From: Escherichia coli
Lineage (GTDB): Bacteria > Pseudomonadota > Gammaproteobacteria > Enterobacterales > Enterobacteriaceae
Length of the DNA: 64,000 bases
Assembly (NCBI RefSeq): GCF_003334405.1
Contig: NZ_QOWM01000001.1
Strand: one strand, 5' to 3'
Every line of letters starts with the position of its first letter. Positions within the stretch are counted from its first letter, which is position 1. Of this stretch, positions 18,243 to 41,395 are shown in pieces. A model generated the notes under the pieces. The model was not told where the DNA came from. It saw only the letters and a program-made list of their open reading frames with translations, and searched no databases. The position numbers were made by a program, and so were the translations under genes.

Positions 18243-18327
18243 ATAAAAAAACCTGCTGGTGAGGCAGGTTCTTTTATTTACTATTTTCAGGCCTAACACC
18301 ACAGCCTGTGCAACATCGTGTTCCAAC
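18243..18327 (-). ncRNA. predicted OrzO/OrzP-type antitoxin sRNA (copy 1)
   Basis: Minus-strand -10 TATAAT (18339..18334) 17 nt from TTGCAA -35 (18357..18362); predicted TSS near 18327; intrinsic terminator ACCTGC/GCAGGT stem (18251-18269) followed by U-run on minus strand; 5' 20 nt complementary (19/20) to toxin leader 18474-18493. Ends are predictions. Confidence 0.5.
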
Positions 18328-18356
18328 GAACGAATTATAACCATGGCTGGACCCCG

Positions 18357-18384
18357 TTGCAATTAAGATAATGAGATTTATAAT
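18357..18384 (+). promoter_or_regulatory. predicted sigma70 promoter of toxin mRNA (copy 1): TTGCAA-N16-TATAAT
   Basis: -35 TTGCAA 18357-18362, -10 TATAAT 18379-18384; predicted TSS about 18391, giving a leader of about 175 nt to the ATG at 18566. Confidence 0.55.
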
Positions 18385-18565
18385 CCAGACCGTTGGGACG
18401 TTGCGCCGGATCGAACCTATTTCAAGTCCTGGCTACCGGACGGGTGGTGCTGCAGGTGGTGCCCTGATCCGGAGTGCAACATCGTGGTCCAACATACGTA
18501 AACCAGTATCGACAGGCAGTGTAAGGGTAAGGTGCTGGTGTTGCGCTCCTTAATAAGGAGAGCGG

Positions 18566-18655
18566 ATGGACACGCTGACACAAAAGTTAACCGTGCTCAT
18601 TGCTGTACTGGAGCTATTAGTAGCTCTGTTACAGTTGATTGATTTGTTGAAGTAA
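18566..18655 (+). CDS. zorO: ZorO/ZorP-family type I toxin, 29-aa hydrophobic peptide (copy 1)
   Basis: ATG 18566 with AAGGAG SD 6 nt upstream; translation MDTLTQKLTVLIAVLELLVALLQLIDLLK then TAA; matches remembered ZorO/ZorP family of E. coli O157:H7. Assignment of O versus P to the two copies is arbitrary. Confidence 0.78.
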   Translation: MDTLTQKLTVLIAVLELLVALLQLIDLLK

Positions 18656-18676
18656 CGGGCAAATTGAAACGCATCT

Positions 18677-18705
18677 AAGGGGGAAAACCGCTTCCCCCTT
18701 TAATA
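18677..18705 (+). terminator. intrinsic terminator after toxin ORF copy 1
   Basis: AGGGGGA ... TCCCCCT stem-loop followed by TTTAATAAAA. Confidence 0.45.
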
Positions 18706-18852
18706 AAATGATTACTGTTTTTATTAATTCATCATATAACTCATGTTTATTTATAAGTTCATCGATTTTATATTCAACGCACCATTTGACCGGGATGTGA
18801 ATATTTATGGTGGGCTATTGGCAAAAAATATCTGGAAAGTAGATCGCAGAAA

Positions 18853-18935
18853 ATAAAAAAACCTGCTGGTGAGGCAGGTTCTTTTATTTACTACAGTGAC
18901 GCTAACTTGCTGATTGTGCAACATTTCGTACCAAC
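18853..18935 (-). ncRNA. predicted OrzO/OrzP-type antitoxin sRNA (copy 2)
   Basis: Minus-strand -10 (18947..18942) 17 nt from TTGCAA (18965..18970); terminator stem 18861-18879 with U-run on minus strand; 5' region 18916-18935 matches leader 19082-19101 at 18/20. Confidence 0.5.
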
Positions 18936-18964
18936 GAATAAATTATAACCATATCCACACTCCA

Positions 18965-18992
18965 TTGCAATTCAGTGAATGAGATTTATAAT
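18965..18992 (+). promoter_or_regulatory. predicted sigma70 promoter of toxin mRNA (copy 2): TTGCAA-N16-TATAAT
   Basis: -35 18965-18970, -10 18987-18992. Confidence 0.55.
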
Positions 18993-19173
18993 CCTGCCCG
19001 TTGGGAGGTTGTGCCGGATCGGACCAATTTTAAGTCCTGGCTGCTGGACGGGTGGTGCCGCAGGCGGTGCCCTGATCCGGAGAGCAACGTTTCGTACCAA
19101 CATACGTAAACCAGTATCGACAGGCAGTGTAAGGGTAAGGTGCTGGTGTTGCGCTCCTTAATAAGGAGAGCGG

Positions 19174-19263
19174 ATGGACACGCTGACACAAAAGTTAATC
19201 GTGCTCATTGCCGTACTGGAGTTATTAGTGGCTCTGTTACGGTTGATTGATTTGTTGAAGTAA
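19174..19263 (+). CDS. zorP: ZorO/ZorP-family type I toxin, 29-aa peptide (copy 2)
   Basis: ATG 19174 with AAGGAG SD; translation MDTLTQKLIVLIAVLELLVALLRLIDLLK then TAA; differs from copy 1 at residues 9 and 23. O versus P naming is arbitrary. Confidence 0.78.
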   Translation: MDTLTQKLIVLIAVLELLVALLRLIDLLK

Positions 19264-19284
19264 CGGGCAAATTGAAACGCATCT

Positions 19285-19313
19285 AAGGGGGAATACCGTT
19301 TCCCCCTTTAATA
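19285..19313 (+). terminator. intrinsic terminator after toxin ORF copy 2
   Basis: AAGGGGGAA ... TTCCCCCTT stem-loop followed by TAATAAA. Confidence 0.45.
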
Positions 19314-41261: not shown

Positions 41262-41395
41262 CAACCAAACGACTCGGGGTGCCCTTCTGCGTGAAGGCTG
41301 AGAAATACCCGTATCACCTGATCTGGATAATGCCAGCGTAGGGAAGTCACGGACCACCAGGTCATTGCTTCTTCACGTTATGGCAGGAGCAAACT
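41262..41395 (+). promoter_or_regulatory. TPP (THI-box) riboswitch in thiM leader
   Basis: Leader contains ACGACTCGGGGTGCCCTTCTGCGTGAAGGCTGAGAAATACCCGTATCACCTGATCTGGATAATGCCAGCGTAGGGAAGTC, the classic thiM TPP aptamer, with SD GGCAGGAGC just before the ATG. Boundaries approximate. Confidence 0.85.

Follow-up and report, generated by a model that had tools for sequence, protein, structure and literature searches.

A tandem zor-orz array in Escherichia coli whose Orz sRNAs and zor leaders share a co-diverged pairing core

The region at 18245-19308 of the 64-kb stretch of Escherichia coli DNA analyzed here (the window) is a tandem zor-orz type I toxin-antitoxin array, with orzP/zorP as its first copy and orzO/zorO as its second. 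The best explanation of this region, to which we assign a probability of roughly 95%, is a pair of tandem modules in which the 5' end of each Orz sRNA pairs with the leader of its cognate zor mRNA through a core that has diverged together with its target. A search of finished genomes also uncovered three rare modules in which the classes of sRNA and target disagree.

Identity and context of the locus

The array sits between yehL and yehK in the RefSeq annotation of the identical region of E. coli UMNF18, and the published chromosomal position of zor-orz is the yehI/yehK-yehL intergenic region (Fozo 2010). Across the locus, the window is 100% identical to UMNF18 and 98.8% identical to O157:H7 strains. 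According to a repeat analysis of the window, a 608-bp tandem duplication underlies the two modules; the second copy adjoins yehK. The names of the copies follow from the V1 region of the sRNA (+9 to +11), which is GAA in OrzO and ACG in OrzP (Wen 2014). Because V1 reads ACG in copy 1 and GAA in copy 2, the former is orzP/zorP and the latter orzO/zorO. In an alignment with an O157:H7 genome, the 20-nt pairing blocks of both sRNAs and of both targets show no difference from the O157:H7 type.

None of the four genes, two for toxins and two for sRNAs, is annotated by RefSeq/PGAP in UMNF18 or O157:H7. An NCBIfam scan of both 29-aa toxins returned no family model, which accounts for the missing toxin annotation and says nothing about function. 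Elsewhere in the window, Rfam models match the CyaR/RyeE sRNA (57606-57691, minus strand, 100.7 bits) and a TPP riboswitch (41265-41361, plus strand, 71.2 bits); no tRNA genes were found in the 64 kb.

The sRNA genes and their divergent promoters

Both sRNA genes match Rfam family RF02083 (OrzO-P) on the minus strand, with 99.9 bits at 18245-18320 and 88.8 bits at 18855-18928. The gathering score of this family is 60 bits, and both matches span positions 1-76 of the 76-position model. Combining the Rfam match with promoter geometry, V1 numbering and the predicted fold, we place orzP at 18245-18327 (minus strand, ~83 nt); orzO, likewise assigned from Rfam and V1, occupies 18855-18935 (minus strand, ~81 nt). 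Each ends in an intrinsic terminator with a U-run, whose 12-bp stem is present in the cmscan alignment and in the minimum free energy folds, although the terminator scan did not list these minus-strand hairpins.

The 5' ends of both sRNAs and both mRNAs have been mapped by primer extension (Fozo 2010). Relative to the mapped sRNA ends, the RF02083 model begins 7 nt downstream (leaving 18321-18327 and 18929-18935 uncovered) and so leaves out nucleotides +1 to +7. The nucleotides absent from the model belong to the pairing block and to the class-variable core described below.

A promoter scan identified two back-to-back σ70-like promoters in each module, each agreeing with the consensus at 10 of 12 positions, with one -35 hexamer between them. 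The orzP -10 hexamer is TATAAT at 18334-18339 (minus strand) and that of orzO lies at 18942-18947 (minus strand), so that they end 7 nt upstream of 18327 and 18935, respectively. On the plus strand, the zorP -10 hexamer (TATAAT) occupies 18379-18384 and that of zorO 18987-18992. Between them lies the palindromic -35 hexamer TTGCAA, common to both strands (18357-18362 in copy 1; 18965-18970 in copy 2), and the -10 boxes sit 16-17 nt from it on either side. An identical -35 sequence is given for zor and orz in Table 3 of mSystems 2024. With one -35 hexamer for both promoters, RNA polymerase cannot occupy them simultaneously, so toxin and antitoxin transcription could be inversely coupled.

The toxin genes

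Downstream of each zor promoter lies a leader of 174 nt. We placed the zorP 5' UTR at 18392-18565 using the published UTR length and a transcription start 8 nt downstream of the -10 hexamer, and the zorO 5' UTR at 19000-19173 using the promoter scan and the published leader length. Both leaders carry the ribosome-binding site AAGGAG. In zorP it lies at 18555-18560 (+164 to +169) and is predicted to be sequestered in a stem (mean unpaired probability of 0.07); in zorO it was located at 19163-19168 from sequence and fold.

The open reading frames, recognized by homology to the O157:H7 proteins, encode hydrophobic toxins of 29 aa: zorP at 18566-18655 (MDTLTQKLTVLIAVLELLVALLQLIDLLK) and zorO at 19174-19263 (MDTLTQKLIVLIAVLELLVALLRLIDLLK), both on the plus strand. 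A palindromic arm marks a predicted terminator hairpin for each, at 18677-18700 for zorP, where it fits the ~310-nt transcript of Wen 2014, and at 19285-19308 for zorO. The two toxins are 93-97% identical to ZorP and ZorO of O157:H7. ZorP in the window has T3 and Q23, compared with S3 and R23 in EDL933-type ZorP, and ZorO has I9, compared with T9 in the EDL933 protein that was tested. Neither Q23 nor I9 occurs in the other 15 leader/CDS alleles sampled. At position 23 of ZorO, toxicity is lost with R23L but retained with R23E (PMC9860968), so Q23 might have either effect. The toxicity of Z3290 (ZorP) has been demonstrated (Fozo 2010). We assume that the ZorP-Q23 and ZorO-I9 variants are toxic.

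Pairing blocks and cognate duplexes

The preliminary description of this DNA reported that a 20-nt block at 18308-18327 within the copy 1 sRNA gene matches a leader block at 18474-18493 at 19 of 20 positions, and that the corresponding copy 2 blocks at 18916-18935 and 19082-19101 match at 18 of 20. These coordinates and sequences are exact, and the cross-copy pairs are indeed poorer, with sRNA and target agreeing at 14 and 15 of 20 positions. Block comparison places the sRNA blocks at +1 to +20 of OrzP and OrzO. Their position at the very 5' end of each sRNA, also part of that description, agrees with the -10 hexamers ending 7 nt upstream, with the V1 numbering and with the primer-extension ends (Fozo 2010). 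The target blocks, found by block matching on the plus strand, span +83 to +102 of each leader; in zorP this is 73-92 nt upstream of the ATG.

As RNA, OrzP and zorP form 19 Watson-Crick pairs, interrupted by a single A.G mismatch at sRNA +7, and OrzO and zorO form 18 Watson-Crick pairs, one G:U pair (+13) and one mismatch (+19), for 19 of 20 pairable positions. Such matches do not arise readily by chance. With up to three mismatches allowed, no block occurs in the 64-kb window outside its own position and that of its cognate partner, and no block matches appeared in 100 dinucleotide-preserving shuffles.

Duplex prediction for all four sRNA-leader combinations, a check that the preliminary description had proposed, favored the cognate pairs in hybrid, accessibility-corrected and cofold energies. 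We dropped whole-molecule RNAduplex runs of sRNA against leader because they force unrealistic end-to-end hybrids; block-level hybrid energies combined with opening energies, plus cofolding, were used instead. The block hybrid energies are -30.8 kcal/mol for OrzP/zorP and -29.6 kcal/mol for OrzO/zorO, compared with -17.2 kcal/mol for OrzP/zorO and -21.2 kcal/mol for OrzO/zorP. Shuffled targets paired with the 20-mers give a mean of about -7 kcal/mol and a minimum of -18.4 kcal/mol. Once opening costs are included, cognate pairs reach about -13 kcal/mol on the full-length leader and non-cognate pairs -1 to -3 kcal/mol; on the d28 leader (first 28 nt removed) the values are about -18.5 and -6.6 to -8.6 kcal/mol. 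Cognate pairs thus lead by approximately 10-12 kcal/mol once accessibility is taken into account, and by 6-17 kcal/mol in cofolding.

Experiments on zorO yielded a pairing rule for repression: 15 or more continuous pairs, or 17 or more discontinuous ones around a single internal mismatch (Wen 2014). OrzO-zorO falls within it with 18 continuous pairs, one of them G:U. OrzP-zorP, with 17 of 18 pairs and one internal mismatch, sits exactly at the published minimum.

Co-divergence of blocks in three natural classes

For comparison we took modules out of 17 metagenome contigs, finished genomes of E. coli and three Escherichia species besides it. They fall into three main classes, in which variation is restricted to block positions 10-16 (sRNA +5 to +11) and the sRNA flanks are constant. 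The core reads CGTGTTC in the sRNA block and CGTGGTC in the target of class P, TTCGTAC in both blocks of class O, and GGCATCT in the sRNA block and GGCGACT in the target of class Q. Two minor sRNA variants depart slightly from this pattern: Q2 also differs at position 1, and an O-like variant (loci L014 and L025) also differs at positions 1 and 7. Class-matched pairs have hybrid energies of about -30 kcal/mol, and all 32 complete class-matched modules sampled pair within the Wen 2014 rule. Every non-cognate combination tested, nine of nine drawn from P, O, Q and the Q2 variant, falls short of it. A short variable core, sRNA +5 to +11 including V1, would discriminate between modules.

The compensatory divergence proposed for the two modules in the preliminary description is borne out by this sample: the window carries the O157:H7 blocks, and a third class, Q, co-varies at the same positions. 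A scan of GTDB species representatives anchored on the ribosome-binding site and start codon found only three loci, in Escherichia sp. E1V33, Escherichia sp. MOD1-EC7003 and E. whittamii. These carry the same P or O blocks and thus add no new covariation.

Could the blocks match for a reason other than selection for pairing? On the DNA they are same-strand direct repeats of 20 bp, 166 bp apart, and gene conversion between them could keep them alike, which would make the compensatory pattern a by-product of recombination. The locus does recombine: finished genomes contain mosaic modules with clean switch points, and copy number ranges from 0.5 to 4. However, cognate blocks differ from each other at fixed positions, in other Escherichia species as well, and ongoing conversion would erase such differences. 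Block position 14 is T in the sRNA and G in the target of each of the 15 P modules, and in each of the 10 O modules the sRNA and target blocks disagree at positions 2 and 8. That the imperfections of cognate pairs are fixed by class (a mismatch at +7 for P and Q, a G:U pair at +13 for O) argues against simple gene conversion between blocks. Moreover, the mosaics that we observed switch within long identical stretches and not at the blocks, and 20 bp lies below the usual minimum for RecA-dependent exchange. We consider gene conversion a quite unlikely explanation and retain selection for pairing.

The +7 mismatch (18321 in orzP, 18487 in the zorP leader) is fixed in OrzP-zorP and in OrzQ-zorQ, while OrzO-zorO is fully paired at +7. 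It is kept in every P module sampled, including those of other Escherichia species.

A few sampled loci depart from the usual geometry. In Eco-15 (L010, 809-1070), the sRNA block and target are spaced by 165 nt instead of the 166 nt seen elsewhere, and the distance from the target to the toxin start is also off by 1 nt. Since yehK is annotated as frameshifted in this genome, these spacing differences may be homopolymer assembly errors. In VTB97448v (L032, 1316-1490), a second OrzP 5' block lies 153 nt from the first, suggesting that part of the orzP promoter and 5' region was duplicated internally. The K-12 lineage, sampled as MC1061 (L012, 809-930), has an intact orzP with approximately 30 nt of zor leader and no toxin; this is the published orphan OrzPmg.

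Specificity of the two antitoxins

The identical blocks of O157:H7 have been studied experimentally, with zorO as the only target in the published rescue experiments. OrzO rescues cells from zorO toxicity and OrzP does not, despite equal expression (Wen 2014). Exchanging the 3 nt of V1 switches the outcome for either sRNA, and compensatory changes in zorO restore repression (Wen 2014). V1 and its target are both predicted to be single-stranded (Wen 2014). For zorO, these results agree with the cognate choice of antitoxin that the preliminary description had suggested.

An opposing view would hold that the Orz sRNAs are redundant, each repressing both toxins, and that the block differences are neutral drift. 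The flanks of the block (sRNA +1 to +4/+5 and +12 to +18) are identical between the copies, and non-cognate duplexes consequently still reach -17 to -21 kcal/mol. Cofolding of non-cognate pairs likewise retains 15-16 intermolecular pairs within the block. Against redundancy stand the failure of OrzP at equal levels and the reversal of both sRNAs by the V1 swap in the experiments above, the shortfall of the non-cognate pairs relative to the pairing rule, and the finding that across three classes the same 7-nt core varies, always with sRNA and target co-varying. For OrzP acting on zorO, redundancy has already been refuted, and overall we judge it very unlikely. The probability is practically negligible that the blocks are duplication leftovers with no role in pairing, an idea to which only the repetitive nature of the region lends support and which published experiments on identical sequences already refute: zorO is repressed by the unrelated sRNAs OhsC and IstR once these are given the first 18 nt of OrzO, and OrzO-dependent cleavage sites fall within the paired region (Wen 2014).

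Discrimination by the core, with each sRNA directed to its own leader, thus remains the preferred reading. Published experiments bear on OrzP and OrzO acting on zorO, and our calculations support cognate-only discrimination in both directions. By the same calculations, OrzP would repress zorP and OrzO would not. In a survey of 2,439 loci, the pairing region was the variable part and 99.8% of Orz sRNAs can repress their cognate zor (mSystems 2024). The same survey defined zorQ/orzQ and proposed that the variation avoids crosstalk.

Leader structure and a model for repression

The primary zor transcript is translated poorly, and removal of 28 nt from its 5' end opens a region termed EAP, "exposed after processing", which is a putative ribosome standby site (Wen 2017). 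[quoted passage not shown] With the coordinates of that study (+73 to +102), the EAP corresponds to 18464-18493 in zorP and to 19072-19101 in zorO. The target blocks form its 3' part.

In the predicted fold of the full-length leader, nucleotides +1 to +14 pair with the target block and the ribosome-binding site is also paired. With the first 28 nt gone, +83 to +102 is predicted to open at a cost lower by approximately 5 kcal/mol (in zorP, 6.1 instead of 11.2 kcal/mol). The zor 5' end is predicted to pair with the CCAAC...GCAAC target block. Within this block, positions 3-7 (the invariant GCAAC, +85 to +89) are predicted to pair with +9 to +13 in 17 of 17 leader alleles. The zor mRNA starts with GUUGG, as does Orz (18392-18405 in zorP; 19000-19013 in zorO), so the antitoxin resembles the leader's own cis-acting clamp. 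We also considered whether the variable core escapes this clamp. That idea was only partly supported, as the core is unpaired in P and inconsistently paired in O and Q alleles.

Published work and these folds are consistent with the following model. Each module encodes a 29-aa membrane toxin behind a 174-nt leader, along with a divergent sRNA of ~80 nt transcribed from a back-to-back promoter. In the primary transcript, the target stretch would be clamped by the mRNA 5' end, and loss of 28 nt from that end would free it. Each Orz would use its 5'-terminal 18-20 nt to pair with its cognate zor leader at +83 to +102. Pairing at this putative standby site would block translation and trigger RNase III-dependent decay of the mRNA. 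[quoted passage not shown]

Modules with mismatched sRNA and target classes

Two metagenome contigs (L023 and L028) contain modules that combine an sRNA of one class with a target of another. Because these modules switch class within stretches that are identical between copies, they could be assembly chimeras, and we relied on finished genomes instead. Hybrid queries of 216 nt, one for each of the six class combinations, were run against 5,426 finished E. coli genomes; pure modules reach at most about 95% with such queries. Because partial-coverage matches inflate the identity bands of this census, only full-coverage matches were used. Three full-length class-mismatched candidates emerged among the 5,426 genomes, all with intact toxin genes.

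JNE23-001 (L030, 1316-2720) carries three modules: one with an OrzP sRNA and a Q target, one O/O and one Q/Q. SL112 (L031, 708-1500) has two, a P/P module and one with an OrzQ sRNA and a P target. In both genomes, a neighboring module encodes an sRNA that matches the mismatched intact toxin gene. We rejected this cover in trans as evidence of selection, since hybrids generated by recombination between resident modules keep a matching sRNA automatically.

HH97 (NZ_CP116409; L033, 1516-2300) has a single intact module, which combines an OrzP sRNA with an O-type leader. Its promoter, ribosome-binding site, ATG and wild-type ZorO open reading frame are intact. The second module is decayed and looks garbled, with neither an orz gene nor a start codon, and the array contains no matching OrzO. 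The 5' end of the HH97 leader resembles the K-12-type remnant. With an intact, O-addressed toxin gene and only OrzP in its array, HH97, provided that its assembly is correct, suggests that cells at native expression levels may manage without a cognate sRNA. On a broader and decidedly doubtful interpretation, classes P, O and Q would serve as addresses for the whole array rather than for one module, and a matching Orz would be dispensable at native expression.

Discussion

The closest relative of the array is zorO-orzO/zorP-orzP of EDL933 O157:H7, which shares its locus, architecture, blocks, promoter hexamers, ribosome-binding sites and 174-nt leader geometry. The two differ only at strain level, including the ZorP and ZorO substitutions noted above. 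The zorQ-orzQ module (mSystems 2024) has the same scaffold, constant flanks and seven variable, co-varying positions as the window, and its cognate duplex reaches -30.0 kcal/mol. It differs in its core sequence and is absent from the window.

Similar strategies are used by other toxin-antitoxin pairs. Like zor-orz, the E. coli type I systems tisB-istR1 and shoB-ohsC have divergent genes and a trans-acting antitoxin whose 5' end pairs over 18-21 nt with a long 5' UTR; in these systems, too, the active mRNA is a processed form and the sRNA targets a standby site upstream. Neither the sRNAs nor the toxins are related to those of zor-orz, and wild-type OhsC and IstR leave zorO unrepressed (Wen 2014). 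Unlike zor-orz, both are single-copy systems and need no discrimination between paralogs. The ibs-Sib pairs do occur as paralogs within a genome, and resemble zor-orz in their short recognition regions and in a kissing-complex-like start of pairing (Wen 2014). However, Sib is a true antisense RNA that overlaps the ibs coding region and has two recognition domains, whereas Orz is divergently encoded and appears to use a single domain.

Much of what we describe is already known: the pairing blocks, sRNA ends, V1 determinant, standby-site mechanism and population variability were all published between 2010 and 2024. The scientific gain is accordingly small. Still, the correct rediscovery of these unannotated genes from sequence alone makes a useful positive control. 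What is new is a small addition, namely the three rare class-mismatched modules among 5,426 finished genomes. Such modules, HH97 above all, provide a natural test of whether a cognate antitoxin is needed at native expression. If HH97 is correctly assembled and lacks an orzO at any other site, Zor synthesis would be held back primarily by the structured 5' UTR and only secondarily by the cognate sRNA.
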